A DNA stretch of 64,000 bases, taken from the NCBI RefSeq assembly GCF_044324785.1, contig NZ_CP172127.1; one strand, given 5' to 3'. Positions 8,897 to 63,805 of this stretch are shown piece by piece. Below the pieces are notes generated by a model that saw only the letters and a program-made list of their open reading frames with translations, did not search any database and was not told the DNA's origin. Positions within the stretch are counted from its first letter, which is position 1; every line of letters begins with the position of its first letter. A program made the translations under genes and the position numbers. Source of the stretch: Escherichia coli (GTDB lineage: Bacteria > Pseudomonadota > Gammaproteobacteria > Enterobacterales > Enterobacteriaceae).

Positions 8897-9006
8897 AAAA
8901 AAAAGCCCGAACGACTGTTCGGGCTTGTCTTTTTATATGTTGGAAAATCAGTGGCAATGCAATGGCCCAACAGAAAATAAAATCTGTGACAATAAAGGCA
9001 TATAAC
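8897..9006 (-). ncRNA. micC: MicC small RNA (about 109 nt), antisense regulator of porin mRNAs
   Basis: Minus-strand sequence GTTATATGCCTTTATTGTCACAGATTTTATTTTCTGTTGGGCC... ending in hairpin GCCCGAACAGTCGTTCGGGC plus U-run matches MicC as I recall it; lies between ydbK and ompN. Confidence 0.85.
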
Positions 9007-39372: not shown

Positions 39373-39376
39373 GTTA

Positions 39377-39409
39377 ATATGCCTGATGGTGTTGCACCAT
39401 CAGGCATAT
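39377..39409. terminator. bidirectional terminator hairpin between convergent tpx and tyrR
   Basis: perfect 15-bp stem atatgcctgatggtg / caccatcaggcatat with 3-nt loop. Confidence 0.7.
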
Positions 39410-39415
39410 TCGCGC

Positions 39416-53119: not shown

Positions 53120-53884
53120 TCAGAGTCGCTGTTTTTCAGCGATATGGTGCTGACAAGCGGTGATAAAGCCCTCGAACAATATACGCGAAAGCGCGTACTC
53201 GCTACTGTTCCATTCCGGGTGCCACTGTACGCCCAGCGCAAAAGGATGATTGATGACGCTAACCGCCTCAACTAAGCCATCCGGCGAGCGAGCTTCAACA
53301 CGCAACCGTGGGCTAACGACCTTCGCCCCTTGTCCATGCAGAGAGTTTACCCAAAAGTTGCTACATTCAGGTAACAACGCAGACAGTAATCCCCCCTCTT
53401 CAACCAGAACTTCATGCGACGGCGCATATTGCTGCTCCACCGGCAGTTCGGGATCTTCCCGATGTTCCAGCAATTCAGGCTGTTCGCACAGCTTGCGATG
53501 CAACGAACCACCGGTTGCCACCACCAGTTCCTGTAAACCCCGGCAGATGGCGAAAATGGGGATGCGCCTTTCGAGTGCGGCATTAATTAACGCCATGCTC
53601 AGAAGATCACGCCCAGGATCGGCGTCAGGCTCATCGCCGTTTTCACCATATAGGTGCGGCTGCACATTGCTGGGACTACCAGGAAGATAAATACCATCGA
53701 GTTTCGGCAAAAGTTGTTCAAGTAATGACGGTTCCGCCAGCGCATGTGGCAGCGCAATTGGCAAGCCGCCTGCGTGGATGATGGCATTCAGGTACTTTTC
53801 TTGCAGAGTCTGGGTCGCATGACCCTTAAGCCTGTTCCTGCACATTACGACACCGATAACCGGATTGTTCATTATATTTTCCAT
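53120..53884 (-). CDS. puuD: gamma-glutamyl-GABA hydrolase PuuD, class-I glutamine amidotransferase (254 aa)
   Basis: ORF track 53120..53896 trimmed to MENIMNNPVIG; nucleophile Cys in AICRGLQ. Confidence 0.9.
   Translation of the reverse strand: MENIMNNPVIGVVMCRNRLKGHATQTLQEKYLNAIIHAGGLPIALPHALAEPSLLEQLLPKLDGIYLPGSPSNVQPHLYGENGDEPDADPGRDLLSMALINAALERRIPIFAICRGLQELVVATGGSLHRKLCEQPELLEHREDPELPVEQQYAPSHEVLVEEGGLLSALLPECSNFWVNSLHGQGAKVVSPRLRVEARSPDGLVEAVSVINHPFALGVQWHPEWNSSEYALSRILFEGFITACQHHIAEKQRL
53866..53880. promoter_or_regulatory. PuuR-box candidate 1 (overlaps the first codons of puuD)
   Basis: minus-strand AAAATATAATGAACA; first of three repeated 15-mers in the puuD/puuA region. Confidence 0.6.
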
Positions 53885-53942: not shown

Positions 53943-53957
53943 TGTTCAATATTTTTT
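53943..53957. promoter_or_regulatory. PuuR-box candidate 2
   Basis: minus-strand AAAAAATATTGAACA. Confidence 0.55.
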
Positions 53958-54037
53958 CAATCTAGCAGTGGGTTTTCATTTTTGCAAACTCAATTTAACA
54001 TTTGACAAACATTTAGTTTGCATACAGATTCGAATGG

Positions 54038-54052
54038 TGGTCATTATATTTT
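54038..54052. promoter_or_regulatory. PuuR-box candidate 3
   Basis: minus-strand AAAATATAATGACCA. Confidence 0.55.
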
Positions 54053-54095
54053 ACGCTTTGATAACGAGCGGAAAACAAACCAAAGGCGAAGAATC

Positions 54096-55514
54096 ATGGA
54101 AACCAATATCGTTGAAGTAGAGAACTTTGTTCAGCAGTCAGAAGAGAGGCGGGGTAGCGCCTTTACGCAGGAAGTGAAACGCTACCTGGAGCGCTACCCG
54201 AATACGCAATATGTTGATGTTTTACTTACCGATTTAAATGGTTGCTTCCGTGGAAAACGTATTCCTGTTTCAAGCCTGAAGAAGCTCGAGAAAGGGTGTT
54301 ATTTCCCGGCCTCGGTATTTGCAATGGATATTCTGGGCAACGTAGTAGAAGAAGCGGGTCTGGGTCAGGAAATGGGCGAACCGGATCGTACCTGTGTTCC
54401 TGTTCTCGGTTCCTTAACCCCTTCTGCCGCCGATCCAGAGTTTATCGGTCAGATGCTCCTGACCATGGTCGATGAAGATGGCGCTCCCTTTGACGTTGAG
54501 CCGCGGAACGTTCTTAACCGCCTGTGGCAGCAGCTGCGCCAGCGCGGATTGTTCCCGGTCGTAGCGGTAGAGCTGGAGTTCTATTTACTGGATCGCCAGC
54601 GCGACGCTGAAGGGTATCTGCAACCGCCCTGCGCGCCTGGCACCGATGACCGCAATACACAAAGCCAGGTTTACTCCGTTGATAACCTCAACCACTTCGC
54701 CGACGTGCTCAATGATATTGATGAGCTGGCGCAGTTACAGCTGATTCCGGCAGATGGCGCGGTCGCCGAGGCCTCGCCAGGTCAGTTTGAAATCAATCTT
54801 TACCATACCGATAACGTGCTGGAAGCTTGCGATGATGCGCTGGCACTAAAACGCCTGGTGCGTCTGATGGCAGAAAAGCATAAGATGCACGCCACTTTTA
54901 TGGCGAAGCCGTATGAAGAGCACGCGGGCAGCGGGATGCATATCCATATCAGTATGCAAAATAATCGTGGCGAGAACGTGCTTTCTGACGCGGAAGGCGA
55001 AGATTCGCCGCTGCTGAAAAAGATGCTCGCCGGGATGATTGACCTGATGCCGTCATCAATGGCGTTGCTGGCACCAAACGTGAACTCGTATCGCCGCTTC
55101 CAGCCGGGAATGTATGTGCCGACGCAGGCGTCGTGGGGCCATAACAACCGCACCGTTGCCCTGCGTATTCCGTGCGGCGATCGTCATAATCACCGCGTGG
55201 AATATCGCGTGGCGGGTGCCGATGCCAACCCATATCTGGTGATGGCAGCGATTTTTGCCGGTATTTTGCATGGCCTTGATAACGAGCTGCCGTTGCAGGA
55301 AGAAGTCGAAGGCAACGGGCTGGAACAGGAAGGCTTACCCTTCCCGATTCGCCAGAGCGATGCCCTGGGTGAGTTTATCGAGAATGATCACCTGCGCCGC
55401 TATTTAGGCGAACGCTTCTGCCATGTCTATCACGCCTGTAAAAATGATGAGCTGTTGCAGTTTGAGCGCCTCATCACAGAAACAGAAATTGAGTGGATGT
55501 TGAAAAACGCGTAA
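54096..55514 (+). CDS. puuA: gamma-glutamylputrescine synthetase PuuA, glutamine-synthetase family (472 aa)
   Basis: ORF track 54018..55514 trimmed to METNIVEVENF. Confidence 0.95.
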   Translation: METNIVEVENFVQQSEERRGSAFTQEVKRYLERYPNTQYVDVLLTDLNGCFRGKRIPVSSLKKLEKGCYFPASVFAMDILGNVVEEAGLGQEMGEPDRTCVPVLGSLTPSAADPEFIGQMLLTMVDEDGAPFDVEPRNVLNRLWQQLRQRGLFPVVAVELEFYLLDRQRDAEGYLQPPCAPGTDDRNTQSQVYSVDNLNHFADVLNDIDELAQLQLIPADGAVAEASPGQFEINLYHTDNVLEACDDALALKRLVRLMAEKHKMHATFMAKPYEEHAGSGMHIHISMQNNRGENVLSDAEGEDSPLLKKMLAGMIDLMPSSMALLAPNVNSYRRFQPGMYVPTQASWGHNNRTVALRIPCGDRHNHRVEYRVAGADANPYLVMAAIFAGILHGLDNELPLQEEVEGNGLEQEGLPFPIRQSDALGEFIENDHLRRYLGERFCHVYHACKNDELLQFERLITETEIEWMLKNA

Positions 55515-55816
55515 TACCCCTTGCGGGGTTGTTTCATCGGCCTGAGCGGAGCCAGGCCTGACATTTGCTGGTAATCCAGACATTTTCCGGATGTCGCGTT
55601 ATGGAGCGCAGGCGGCAACGGGCTTCCGTTAACGATTAAGACTGTGACGAGGAAATGAGATGATGCCGATGATTAAATCCCCGCATGGCGAGGGAGGCTG
55701 CGTATGCGCCCCTCCTGCGACTGACTGGACTCCGCCCCCTTTGCTTCCCTTGCTAAACAGGTTTGATTTCAGGTCGACACGACCGCAAACCTTATTACGC
55801 AGGGGAGGCAGCAATT

Positions 55817-57202
55817 ATGGCTATTAATTCACCACTGAATATTGCTGCGCAACCCGGCAAAACCCGTCTGCGAAAATCACTGAAATTGTGGCAGGTGGTG
55901 ATGATGGGTCTGGCCTATCTCACGCCGATGACTGTGTTCGATACCTTTGGTATTGTCTCCGGCATTAGCGACGGTCACGTTCCGGCGTCCTATTTGCTGG
56001 CGCTGGCGGGCGTGCTGTTTACCGCTATCAGCTACGGCAAACTGGTTCGCCAGTTTCCGGAAGCCGGTTCGGCCTATACCTACGCGCAAAAGTCGATTAA
56101 CCCGCACGTCGGATTTATGGTCGGCTGGTCATCGCTGCTGGATTATCTCTTTTTGCCGATGATCAACGTCTTGTTGGCGAAAATCTATCTCTCCGCCCTC
56201 TTCCCGGAAGTGCCGCCGTGGGTGTGGGTGGTAACCTTCGTCGCCATTTTAACCGCCGCGAATCTGAAGAGCGTCAACCTGGTCGCAAACTTCAATACCC
56301 TGTTTGTACTGGTGCAAATCTCCATCATGGTGGTGTTTATCTTCCTGGTGGTTCAGGGACTGCATAAAGGAGAAGGCGTTGGCACCGTCTGGTCACTTCA
56401 GCCGTTTATCAGCGAGAACGCGCACCTGATCCCGATTATTACCGGGGCGACGATTGTCTGTTTCTCCTTCCTCGGTTTCGATGCGGTGACCACGCTTTCG
56501 GAAGAGACGCCGGACGCCGCACGCGTGATCCCTAAAGCCATCTTCCTGACGGCGGTATACGGCGGCGTTATCTTTATCGCTGCGTCGTTCTTTATGCAGC
56601 TGTTCTTTCCCGATATCAGCCGCTTTAAAGACCCGGACGCCGCACTGCCTGAAATTGCGCTGTACGTCGGCGGCAAGCTCTTCCAGTCGATTTTCCTCTG
56701 CACCACGTTTGTGAACACGTTAGCGTCTGGCCTGGCTTCACATGCCAGCGTGTCGCGTCTGCTGTATGTGATGGGGCGTGACAATGTGTTTCCGGAGCGC
56801 GTGTTTGGCTATGTGCACCCGAAATGGCGCACGCCAGCGCTGAACGTCATTATGGTCGGGATTGTTGCGCTGTCGGCGCTGTTCTTTGATTTAGTCACCG
56901 CGACAGCATTGATTAACTTCGGTGCTCTGGTGGCATTTACCTTCGTAAATCTGTCGGTGTTTAATCATTTCTGGCGGCGTAAAGGAATGAATAAAAGCTG
57001 GAAGGATCACTTCCACTATTTGCTGATGCCGCTGGTTGGCGCGCTGACGGTGGGTGTGCTGTGGGTTAACCTCGAGTCAACGTCACTGACACTCGGTTTG
57101 GTATGGGCTTCATTAGGCGGCGCATATTTGTGGTATCTGATCCGCCGCTATCGCAAAGTGCCGTTGTATGATGGTGACAGAACGCCGGTGAGCGAAACGT
57201 AA
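55817..57202 (+). CDS. puuP: putrescine importer PuuP, APC family (461 aa)
   Basis: ORF track 55763..57202 trimmed to [12 protein letters not shown]; 12-TM amino-acid/polyamine permease pattern. Confidence 0.9.
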
Positions 57203-57335
57203 TAGTCGGATGCGCGGCGCATTATCCTGCCTGAGGGTAATGCACCGCGCCATTAACTATAAAAAGATGTATGACCCGGATCACGAGTGCTATCATCCGC
57301 CCTTATGCTTAGCGCATTAACCCCAGGGGCAAACA

Positions 57336-57581
57336 ATGAACCACGATATCCCGCTAAAATATTTTGATATTGCCGATGAGTACGCGACCGAATGCGCAGA
57401 GCCTGTCGCAGACGCTGAACGCACACCGCTGGCCCACTACTTCCAGTTACTGCTCACCCGTTTGATGAACAATGAAGAAATCAGCGAAGAAGCCCAACAT
57501 GAAATGGCTGCTGAAGCGGGGATTAATCCCGTACGCATTGATGAGATCGCAGAGTTTTTGAATCAATGGGGTAATGAGTAA
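57336..57581 (+). CDS. ymjA: small protein YmjA (81 aa)
   Basis: 81-aa acidic ORF in the expected position between puuP and sapA. Confidence 0.8.
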
Positions 57582-57614
57582 TTATTTCATTGCAGACGCT
57601 CGGTCAGTATCGTT

Positions 57615-57645
57615 GCCCGGATAAAGCGTTCACGCCGCATCCGGC
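57615..57645. repeat. REP (palindromic unit) element
   Basis: GCCCGGATAAAGCGTTCACGCCGCATCCGGC, canonical REP-like sequence. Confidence 0.75.
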
Positions 57646-57893
57646 TAAAAATGACACGCACTGCAGCGTGCCTTAATGGGTTTCTCACGATCGTACCGCT
57701 CTGCTCCTCGCTAAGTTGTTCTGTGAGTTATAGTTATAGAGAAATCACGGGTACGAATGTTGAACAGATGGCGACGTCACCTGTTCAACGACCAACCACA
57801 CGGCCCTCATTAAGACCCCTGAACACAAACGGTAATGGCAAATGTCATTAAATATTAGTAAGATAGCCTCTTTACATAAAATCCCTTAATATT

Positions 57894-59537
57894 ATGCGCC
57901 AGGTATTATCGTCTCTTTTGGTGATTGCTGGACTTGTGAGTGGTCAGGCAATCGCCGCGCCTGAATCCCCCCCGCATGCTGATATCCGCGACAGCGGTTT
58001 TGTCTATTGCGTTAGCGGGCAAGTCAACACCTTTAACCCATCCAAAGCGAGCAGTGGGTTAATTGTCGATACCCTTGCCGCCCAGTTTTATGATCGACTG
58101 CTGGATGTCGATCCCTATACCTATCGCCTGATGCCGGAACTTGCCGAAAGCTGGGAAGTTCTCGACAACGGCGCGACCTATCGCTTCCACCTGCGTCGCG
58201 ATGTTCCGTTTCAAAAAACCGACTGGTTTACTCCCACTCGTAAAATGAATGCCGACGATGTGGTGTTTACCTTCCAGCGAATTTTTGACCGCAACAACCC
58301 GTGGCATAACGTCAACGGCAGCAACTTCCCCTACTTCGACAGCCTGCAATTTGCCGATAACGTGAAAAGCGTCCGCAAACTGGATAATCATACGGTTGAG
58401 TTCCGACTCGCCCAGCCGGATGCTTCTTTTTTGTGGCACCTGGCGACCCATTATGCATCGGTCATGTCGGCAGAATATGCCGGGAAGTTAGAGAAAGAAG
58501 ATCGCCAGGAACAACTCGACCGTCAACCGGTTGGCACCGGTCCGTATCAGTTGTCGGAATACCGCGCCGGGCAATTTATTCGCTTACAACGTCATGATGA
58601 TTTCTGGCGTGGTAAGCCGTTGATGCCACAAGTGGTGGTGGATTTAGGCTCTGGCGGTACAGGACGATTGTCGAAACTCCTGACCGGGGAGTGCGACGTT
58701 CTGGCCTGGCCTGCTGCCAGTCAGCTATCCATTTTGCGTGACGACCCACGCTTGCGTTTAACGCTGCGTCCTGGGATGAACGTCGCCTATCTGGCATTTA
58801 ACACCGCCAAGCCGCCGCTAAATAATCCCGCTGTCCGCCATGCGCTGGCACTGGCGATCAATAACCAGCGTCTGATGCAATCCATCTATTATGGTACGGC
58901 TGAAACGGCAGCCTCTATTTTACCGCGCGCCTCGTGGGCCTATGACAACGAGGCTAAAATTACTGAATACAATCCGGCGAAATCGCGCGAACAGTTGAAG
59001 GCGTTGGGGCTGGAAAACTTAACGCTGAAACTGTGGGTGCCAACACGTTCGCAGGCGTGGAACCCCAGTCCACTGAAAACCGCCGAACTGATTCAGGCGG
59101 ATATGGCACAGGTTGGCGTAAAAGTGGTGATTGTGCCGGTAGAAGGTCGCTTTCAGGAGGCGCGGTTGATGGATATGAGCCATGATCTGACGTTATCCGG
59201 TTGGGCGACTGACAGTAACGACCCGGACAGTTTCTTCCGTCCGTTACTGAGCTGCGCAGCAATTCATTCGCAGACCAACCTCGCCCACTGGTGCGATCCG
59301 AAATTCGACAGCGTGTTGCGTAAGGCGCTCTCCTCGCAGCAGCTGGCGGCGCGTATTGAAGCCTATGACGAAGCGCAAAGTATTCTGGCGCAGGAATTAC
59401 CTATTCTGCCGCTGGCGTCGTCATTGCGTTTGCAGGCCTATCGGTACGATATCAAAGGTCTGGTACTTAGTCCGTTTGGTAACGCCTCCTTTGCTGGGGT
59501 GTATCGCGAGAAACAGGATGAGGTGAAAAAACCATGA
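57894..59537 (+). CDS. sapA: periplasmic peptide-binding protein SapA (547 aa)
   Basis: signal peptide; family-5 solute-binding protein. Confidence 0.95.
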
Positions 59538-63176: not shown

Positions 63177-63805
63177 CAGGTTTCCTGGCTAGTACAATAT
63201 TCTTCACCGATAGCATCAGGGTCGATAAAGGGATACTCATTTTGCATAATATCCTGTAAATATTGTGCAAAATTAACAGCAATGACCTGATAGCTATCGG
63301 GATCATGTAAATAACGAACAATTTGTCCAGATTTTCCTTTTGGAGATGGAGAAAAGTCGATATATAAACGTGAAGTGCCGCCATTATTAATGCAATGAGC
63401 AAAACAGAGCCAGCGATGAAACGGTACAGTTGGATCTATACGTTCATCAACATCGACTTCGTCCATTTGCCCATCGTAGATTTTCATGATGGATTCCTGA
63501 CCAAACCATGACTTTCTTTCCTCCAAAATCTGCTGGGCAGACTGGAGATAATAGGGATATTCTCCGCCTTCAACATCCGCCCCTAAAACGGGTAAAAATA
63601 CCTTTTTATCCTGATGTTGTTGAAAATAAGTTCCCTTGATCTGGCGAAGCAAACCGAGTAAATCCTCCGAAGAATCAGGATATTCATGGAGAAGTTCTGT
63701 TATATCGCTTTCTTGCGCTCCAGACAGTGTTGCAAATAATGCCCTGACATCCGTTGGCAAATGTGCGGCAAGCCCGGCCAAATATTCCTGATACATTGTC
63801 ATCAT
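63173..63805 (-). CDS. uncharacterised acidic cytoplasmic protein (210 aa), convergent with sapF; possibly SMI1/KNR4 (SUKH)-like, unverified
   Basis: 210-aa ORF MMTMYQEYLAGLAAHLPTDVRALF...; no signal peptide or TM segment; 4-bp convergent overlap with sapF stop; does not resemble the 117-aa YcjD I expect next to sapF in K-12. Confidence 0.6.
   Translation of the reverse strand: MMTMYQEYLAGLAAHLPTDVRALFATLSGAQESDITELLHEYPDSSEDLLGLLRQIKGTYFQQHQDKKVFLPVLGADVEGGEYPYYLQSAQQILEERKSWFGQESIMKIYDGQMDEVDVDERIDPTVPFHRWLCFAHCINNGGTSRLYIDFSPSPKGKSGQIVRYLHDPDSYQVIAVNFAQYLQDIMQNEYPFIDPDAIGEEYCTSQETC

Follow-up and report, generated by a model that had tools for sequence, protein, structure and literature searches.

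The locus and its gene order

The stretch of DNA analysed here (hereafter the window, 64 kb in length) is E. coli chromosome, and the gene calls within it give the order puuA-puuP-ymjA-sapABC, that is, the K-12 sapA-ymjA-puuP-puuA arrangement read in reverse. The features discussed below are collected in Table 1. The spacer between ymjA and sapA aligns to that of K-12 without gaps and with eight differing positions, a window position x corresponding to K-12 coordinate 1357111 + (57893 - x). There are no differences within 57673-57812, and the inverted repeat that is the subject of this study is therefore the same in K-12. Sequences at least 99% identical to the complete spacer of the window are found in just 107 of the 5,422 matching ecoli_genomes records; the best match is an O169:H41 pig isolate (99.7%), and a few of the matches (6-7 places) lie on plasmid-labelled records.

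Among sapA loci fetched from 80 species, ymjA lies upstream of sapA only in the three Escherichia loci, and outside Escherichia and a subset of Citrobacter the sequence upstream of sapA differs. A different upstream sequence is found in L005, L016 and L019 and in most loci of the Enterobacter/Klebsiella group. The upstream region of these loci is presumably the end of pspF, as in the gene order of Salmonella; if so, the ymjA-puu cluster would be an insertion between pspF and sapA in Escherichia.

Table 1. Features of the puuA-sapA region, in window coordinates
Feature	Position	Strand	Remark
PuuR boxes (TGTTCATTATATTTT-type)	53868-53881; 53943-53958; 54039-54052		puuA-puuD spacer
puuA	54018-55514	+
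puuP	55763-57202	+
ymjA	57336-57581	+
ymjA-sapA spacer	57582-57893		312 bp
REP-type palindrome GCCCGGATAAAGCGTTCACGCCGCATCCGGC	57615-57645		just after ymjA
Hairpin GACACGCACTGCAGCGTGCC	57653-57672		after the REP
Tandem GTTATA hexamer region	57727-57740	+	-10-like TATAGT (57729-57734) and TATAGA (57735-57740)
Mapped distal sapA start	57746	+	converted from the coordinate of Kim et al. 2012
Whole element GTTGAACAGATGGCG-A-CGTCACCTGTTCAAC	57759-57789	.	31-bp quasi-palindrome
Left outer arm GTTGAACAG	57759-57767	+
13-nt spacer ATGGCGACGTCAC	57768-57780	+	four inner pairs
Right outer arm CTGTTCAAC	57781-57789	+
Conserved block	57822-57868	+	93% identity to 11 Citrobacter sequences
sapA CDS	57894-59537	+	first gene of sapABCDF, then sapB and sapC

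The REP-type palindrome is the genuine REP between ymjA and sapA. Escherichia sp. MOD1, with a shorter spacer, lacks it, and most positions at which the spacer of the window differs from that of K-12 are inside it or nearby. The Rfam family naRNA4 gives below-threshold matches on both strands at 57615-57672, on the REP and not on the repeat in front of sapA. The hairpin that follows the REP continues on the minus strand into ATTTTTAG and was scored as terminator-like; on the plus strand it may mark the end of ymjA transcription. A 'constitutive promoter', ATGACA-15-TTTAAT in K-12, was placed in this spacer by Shimada 2014 as a guess based on hexamers. We do not rely on it: its hexamers (57651-57677) overlap the hairpin, and the window has CTTAAT there.

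A 31-bp quasi-palindrome upstream of sapA

An earlier note on this DNA had described a 9-bp inverted repeat with a 13-nt loop about 105 bp upstream of the sapA ATG. The two arms are indeed perfectly complementary and 13 nt apart, with 104 nt separating the end of the right arm from the ATG at 57894, and the repeat proves larger than had been described: it extends inwards into 15-nt arms (57759-57773 and 57775-57789), complementary at 13 of 15 positions around one central base. One of the two inner mismatches is a G:T, which becomes a G-U pair in plus-strand RNA. The tandem hexamer GTTATAGTTATA that the same note had listed at 57725-57736 exists as well, at 57727-57738.

How much of this symmetry is to be expected by chance was estimated from first-order Markov shuffles of the window. 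The window has 11 perfect inverted repeats with arms of 9 bp or more and a loop of 3-20 nt against 4.3 ± 2.0 expected, and thus the 9-bp arms constitute weak evidence by themselves. Quasi-palindromes in which 13 or more of 15 positions are complementary and the spacer is up to 5 nt number five against 0.31 ± 0.51 in shuffles, an approximately 16-fold enrichment, and therefore the extended 31-bp element is more than chance: it is a real and non-random feature, and its pattern occurs once in the window. That the repeat is pure coincidence, with neither selection nor templated mutation behind it, is in our judgement very unlikely. Such a reading can draw on the background of perfect 9-bp repeats expected per window and on the fact that the repeat was picked from a scan of all 64 kb; it is set against the rarity of the 13/15 extension in shuffles and against independent substitutions in separate lineages that repeatedly approach complementarity (see below).

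The four other quasi-palindromes of this quality lie at 8898-8931, 39376-39410, 57214-57248 and 63239-63273. The one at 39376-39410 is a perfect 15-bp inverted repeat (AATATGCCTGATGGT...ACCATCAGGCATATT), and that at 57214-57248 directly follows the puuP stop and may be the puuP terminator. In our reading two or more of the four resemble transcription terminators in both appearance and position, which would mean that such repeats are often functional. An 18-codon open reading frame, MLNRWRRHLFNDQPHGPH (57757-57813), has its ATG overlapping the left arm. It is probably not a gene, because the ATG is absent from most Citrobacter and the stop differs in K-12, where TAC in its place gives 21 codons.

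Transcription starts and a conserved block closer to sapA

The only mapped sapA start found in the literature is that of Kim et al. 2012 (PMC3415461, Table S1), at NC_000913.2 position 1355282 on the minus strand, with 2 reads. The same work gives a 148-nt sapA 5' UTR and an upstream sequence that ends ...GTTATAGTTATAGAGAAATC (PMC3415461). Converted to window coordinates, this distal start has TATAGA of the tandem hexamer region as its -10 and no well-fitting -35 hexamer, and relative to it the repeat occupies leader positions +14 to +44. To this extent the earlier note was right in assigning the repeat to the sapA leader; the assignment is weak, given the 2 reads and a better-conserved promoter-like block downstream. 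The tandem GTTATA hexamer is partly kept in Citrobacter as TATAnT. In strain YP3 a 6-nt insertion creates a third, imperfect GTTATA copy, and the length of the hexamer array therefore varies by slippage.

The conserved block contains the hexamers ATGGCA (57835-57840) and TAAGAT (57859-57864) with an 18-nt spacer between them. Its core, GGTAATGGCAAATGTCATTA, lies at a fixed distance of -63/-64 from the sapA ATG in Escherichia and Citrobacter, and Klebsiella, Raoultella and Pseudocitrobacter have a version with 3-5 mismatches at the same distance from the ATG. We infer from this arrangement that the block is probably the main sapA promoter, with a start near 57871 and hence downstream of the repeat; the centre of the repeat would then lie about 97 bp upstream of the start. 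The block is a better candidate for control of sapA than the reported repeat. A scan with consensus promoter models found none above threshold anywhere in the ymjA-sapA spacer, and a preprint on 3'-end mapping makes no mention of sapA. Within the core, positions 57834-57849 form a 16-bp imperfect palindrome, AATGGCA-AA-TGTCATT, which overlaps the -35-like ATGGCA. A similar sequence in inverted orientation, TGATGACATTTGC, is seen near -94 in some loci (L016, L018 and L063), whose upstream regions are of the Salmonella/C. gillenii type.

Predicted structure of the leader RNA

The earlier note had suggested that the leader be folded, and had raised a 5'-UTR structure affecting sapABCDF expression as one possible role of the repeat. 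The plus-strand RNA is predicted to form a hairpin of -15.9 kcal/mol over 37 nt with z = -4.1, a score that is inflated, as the segment was selected for having a repeat. The repeat hairpin is the dominant local structure both alone and when the whole leader is folded, and the fold of the whole leader is not unusual (z = -1.05). In that fold the hairpin does not pair with the region of the start codon, some 100 nt away. The minus strand folds with equal stability into another shape.

A functional 5'-UTR hairpin would form, in transcripts starting at 57746, a stem of 13-14 pairs spanning +14 to +44. It could act on the long sapABCDF leader through its stability, its processing or the pausing of RNA polymerase, and could thereby tune putrescine export or peptide resistance in E. 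coli. The position of the repeat inside the mapped leader, its dominance in the local fold and the different shape of the equally stable minus-strand fold are consistent with this, as are two G-C to G-U polymorphisms that are tolerated only in plus-strand RNA and three changes that create pairs. We nevertheless regard a functional leader hairpin as unlikely. The start itself is known from 2 reads, the whole-leader fold is unremarkable, and the start-codon region is both distant from the hairpin and unpaired with it. With its stem beginning 13 nt inside the transcript, the hairpin is too distant from the 5' end to be a stabiliser of the ompA type. The stem is not followed by a T-run: the following sequence is GACCAACCACACGG, and a terminator scan is silent at the site. 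The transcript would thus lack the U-tract needed for termination, and the repeat is therefore not an intrinsic terminator or attenuator. Compensatory changes across relatives, the mark of a conserved RNA secondary structure, were not seen: in an alignment of eight distinct Escherichia alleles 0 of 14 pairs are altered on both sides, and 81% of cells are paired against 82.5% in column shuffles, so that there is no excess of pairing. No curated covariance model of a described cis-regulatory RNA fits the site, and nothing in Rfam 15 overlaps 57759-57789 even at E-values up to 10. The stem is also poorly kept, both in sister species and within E. coli, as detailed in the next two sections.

Conservation between species

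Of the Citrobacter loci, a subset keeps the proximal ~190 bp of the sapA spacer, and the comparison was made with 11 sequences. Identity between the window and Citrobacter falls from 74% in the left arm to 50% in the 13-nt spacer and 32% in the right arm, the last being close to random, and it is 36% in the 32 nt after the right arm. The left arm is nearly invariant in Escherichia and takes the form TTGAnCAG in Citrobacter; the constraint shared by the two genera bears only on the left half, that is, TTGAnCAG together with the GGTAyGAAT that precedes it. The right arm reads CAGTGCGAC in E. whittamii and CAGTGCAAC in another sister Escherichia (L004), each with 7 of 9 arm pairs. The hairpins of these two have predicted stabilities of -7.8 and -6.4 kcal/mol, respectively, with z-scores of about -1.2 and -1.1, and do no better than shuffled sequences; in Citrobacter the region folds into various small hairpins with no common register and no significant z-scores. 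Sister species thus have no hairpin beyond chance and Citrobacter has no common structure, which argues against the leader hairpin discussed above. The earlier note had itself named two outcomes that, taken together, would tell against its proposal of a protein-binding palindrome or a regulatory 5'-UTR structure: a lack of conservation and a transcription start mapping downstream of the element. The former is what the conservation analysis finds, and the latter is predicted from the conserved block. Neither role gains support from conservation, the right arm being unconserved, the element polymorphic among E. coli lineages and covariation absent.

The same comparison weighs on the idea of a DNA operator for a putative dimeric or tetrameric transcription factor, which could either form a roadblock whose centre lies at +29 of the distal start or bind an upstream site centred near -97 of the proximal promoter. 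The repeat is a near-perfect palindrome whose 9-bp arms are 22 bp apart from centre to centre, about two helical turns; its left half is conserved in Citrobacter, and it lies in a promoter region that adjoins a putrescine gene cluster. An operator would be expected to keep both half-sites in orthologous promoters, and here identity to Citrobacter is 0.74 in the left arm and 0.32 in the right, with 7 of 9 pairs in sister Escherichia. Moreover, the site is polymorphic within E. coli, arms included, 31 bp is long for an operator palindrome, and the T at 57777 in K-12 lowers the symmetry of the DNA while keeping the pairing of the RNA. Only TGTTCA is common to the repeat and the PuuR boxes of the puuA-puuD spacer, and literature searches found no protein binding to the region upstream of sapA. 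Altogether, we consider an operator rather improbable.

Several known binding sites and element classes were compared with the site. The published PuuR consensus is AAAATATAATGAACA; the right arm has TGTTCA only, the AT-rich half is absent, and a PuuR operator was rejected. By eye and against consensus sequences, MetJ (one GACGTC core, no tandem boxes), sigma-54 (TGGCA at 57836 without GC at -12), FNR, ArcA and PhoP half-sites (one half fits only) and the Tus/Ter core (ATGTTGAAC is one base short of GTTGTAAC) were set aside. The sigma-E promoter consensus is GGAACTT-N16-TCAAA; the by-eye match GAACAG-N17-TCAAC is weak, its spacer is off the optimum, and its -10-like part is absent in Citrobacter. 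A REP/BIME or other dispersed repeat was rejected on copy number, the median being one place per genome in 4,360 matching genomes. Searches of the literature on the regulation of E. coli sapA found nothing bearing on the repeat site, and the PtrR paper has nothing on sap.

Variation among E. coli genomes

To survey alleles we used the 61-mer 57744-57804 in 5,426 complete E. coli genomes, 5,105 of which (94%) carry one of four alleles. The allele of K-12 and the window (1,673 genomes) has a predicted hairpin stability of -15.9 kcal/mol. In 1,653 genomes 57777C turns an inner G-U into a G-C pair (-18.6 kcal/mol), and in a further 734, O157:H7 among them, 57777C is combined with 57780T in a perfect 15+1+15 palindrome (-23.3 kcal/mol). 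The remaining allele, 57766T + 57777C + 57789T (1,045 genomes, including ABU 83972), has one outer pair broken and another changed to G-U (-12.0 kcal/mol). The right arm of B2-type E. coli is CTGTTCAAT. The stem-breaking A-to-T change at 57766 reaches a frequency of ~19%, and ~75% of the sampled genomes retain perfect 9-bp arms. Both the stem-breaking change and the range of stability from -12 to -23 kcal/mol count against a functional leader hairpin, a twofold spread being hard to reconcile with a tuned structure.

No other part of the sapA-proximal spacer is as variable as the repeat segment, flanking 61-mers being far more often identical to the window: 57683-57743 in 4,325 genomes and 57820-57880 in 4,881. 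The commonest repeat 61-mer is found in 31% of genomes as compared to 80% and 90% for the two flanks, frequencies that describe polymorphism and not mutation rate, and relaxed constraint would look alike. Among the Escherichia alleles nearly all variation falls in the spacer and the right arm, the left arm being almost fixed, and therefore the arms are not constrained as a unit. The polymorphic sites of the spacer are 57777 (T/C; G-U versus G-C) and 57780 (C/T; A:C versus A-U).

The direction of change is informative. In the E. coli lineage positions 57782 and 57785, and in O157:H7 position 57780, each took on the base complementary to the opposite arm. Three substitutions strengthen the pairing, and another two turn G-C into G-U, which keeps the plus-strand RNA stem. 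In strain N96 five substitutions are clustered in the sequence aligned to 57775-57785 (CGT to AAC and TT to AA), a pattern that one complex mutational event would fit better than independent point changes.

It is most improbable, in our view, that the four alleles make up a recent regulatory element that sets the expression of sapABCDF by lineage. Were it true, B2, A/B1 and O157:H7-type strains would differ in putrescine export or in tolerance to antimicrobial peptides, and alleles that differ in sapABCDF expression would constitute a small case of regulatory divergence between phylogroups.

Origin and possible role of the repeat

An operator or a tuned RNA would be expected to be conserved as a unit, and the repeat is not, which favours drift and templated mutation. 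We think it somewhat probable that the repeat is a lineage-specific quasi-palindrome produced by these two processes, with little or no regulatory role. It would be specific to E. coli and its closest clade and would sit in the non-coding spacer upstream of sapA without a dedicated regulatory role. Only the left half would derive from a sequence block common with Citrobacter; the right half would have gained complementarity to it in the E. coli lineage, and continued change would have led to the perfect 31-bp palindrome of the O157:H7 type and to the weaker stem of the B2 type. The likely drivers would be neutral drift and template switching during replication, a mechanism known to mutate quasi-palindromes, in which one arm is copied onto the other. 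Changes toward the complement of the opposite arm, as at 57780, 57782 and 57785, are the signature of template-switch mutation, and a template-switch origin is what we infer from them. If the distal start at 57746 is in use, the hairpin would be present near the 5' end of the 148-nt leader, and its effect would be at most modest, dependent on the allele and limited to a minor, long-leader transcript.

Several observations weigh against drift and templated mutation as an explanation. Escherichia and Citrobacter share a conserved left arm together with the bases immediately before it, so the repeat overlaps a half that is constrained. Quasi-palindromes of this quality are enriched ~16-fold in the window and, on our reading of the other four, would often be functional. 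Pair-creating changes and G-C to G-U changes are also what selection for an RNA hairpin would yield, about three quarters of the sampled genomes retain perfect 9-bp arms, and template switching is deduced from the pattern of changes.

The practical value of this result is negative: symmetry alone is no ground for annotating an operator or a riboregulator of sapA. In positive terms, the repeat provides a natural quasi-palindrome in several states of completion, sister species having 7 of 9 arm pairs and O157:H7 all 15 of 15, and the series of alleles could serve studies of templated mutation.

Comparison with known systems

The repeat shares features with several classes of element. As in palindromic transcription-factor operators, it has twofold symmetry and is located in a promoter region; unlike these, it has only one half conserved, matches no known motif and is 31 bp long. 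Like REP/BIME elements, it is an inverted repeat between genes of E. coli that can form a hairpin; unlike them, it is present once per genome and is not GC-rich as REP is. From intrinsic terminators it is set apart by the absence of a T-run. Stabilisers of the 5'-terminal ompA type have a stem that starts at most a few nucleotides into the transcript. The repeat would likewise be a strong hairpin close to the beginning of a long leader if transcription starts at 57746; it differs in that its stem begins only at +14, in having no conservation across genera and in having no covariation.

Mutagenesis by template switching at quasi-palindromes is described by the Ripley model and has been studied by the Lovett laboratory. 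Quasi-palindromes are documented as template-switch mutational hotspots in E. coli (PMC7202029). At the sapA repeat the process is read from natural variation, and one common allele, of the B2 type, moves away from complementarity, unlike the hotspots. In common with them, the repeat has imperfect inverted symmetry and exceeds its flanks in polymorphism, and its natural variants convert mismatches to the complement of the opposite arm, up to the perfect palindrome of the O157:H7 type.
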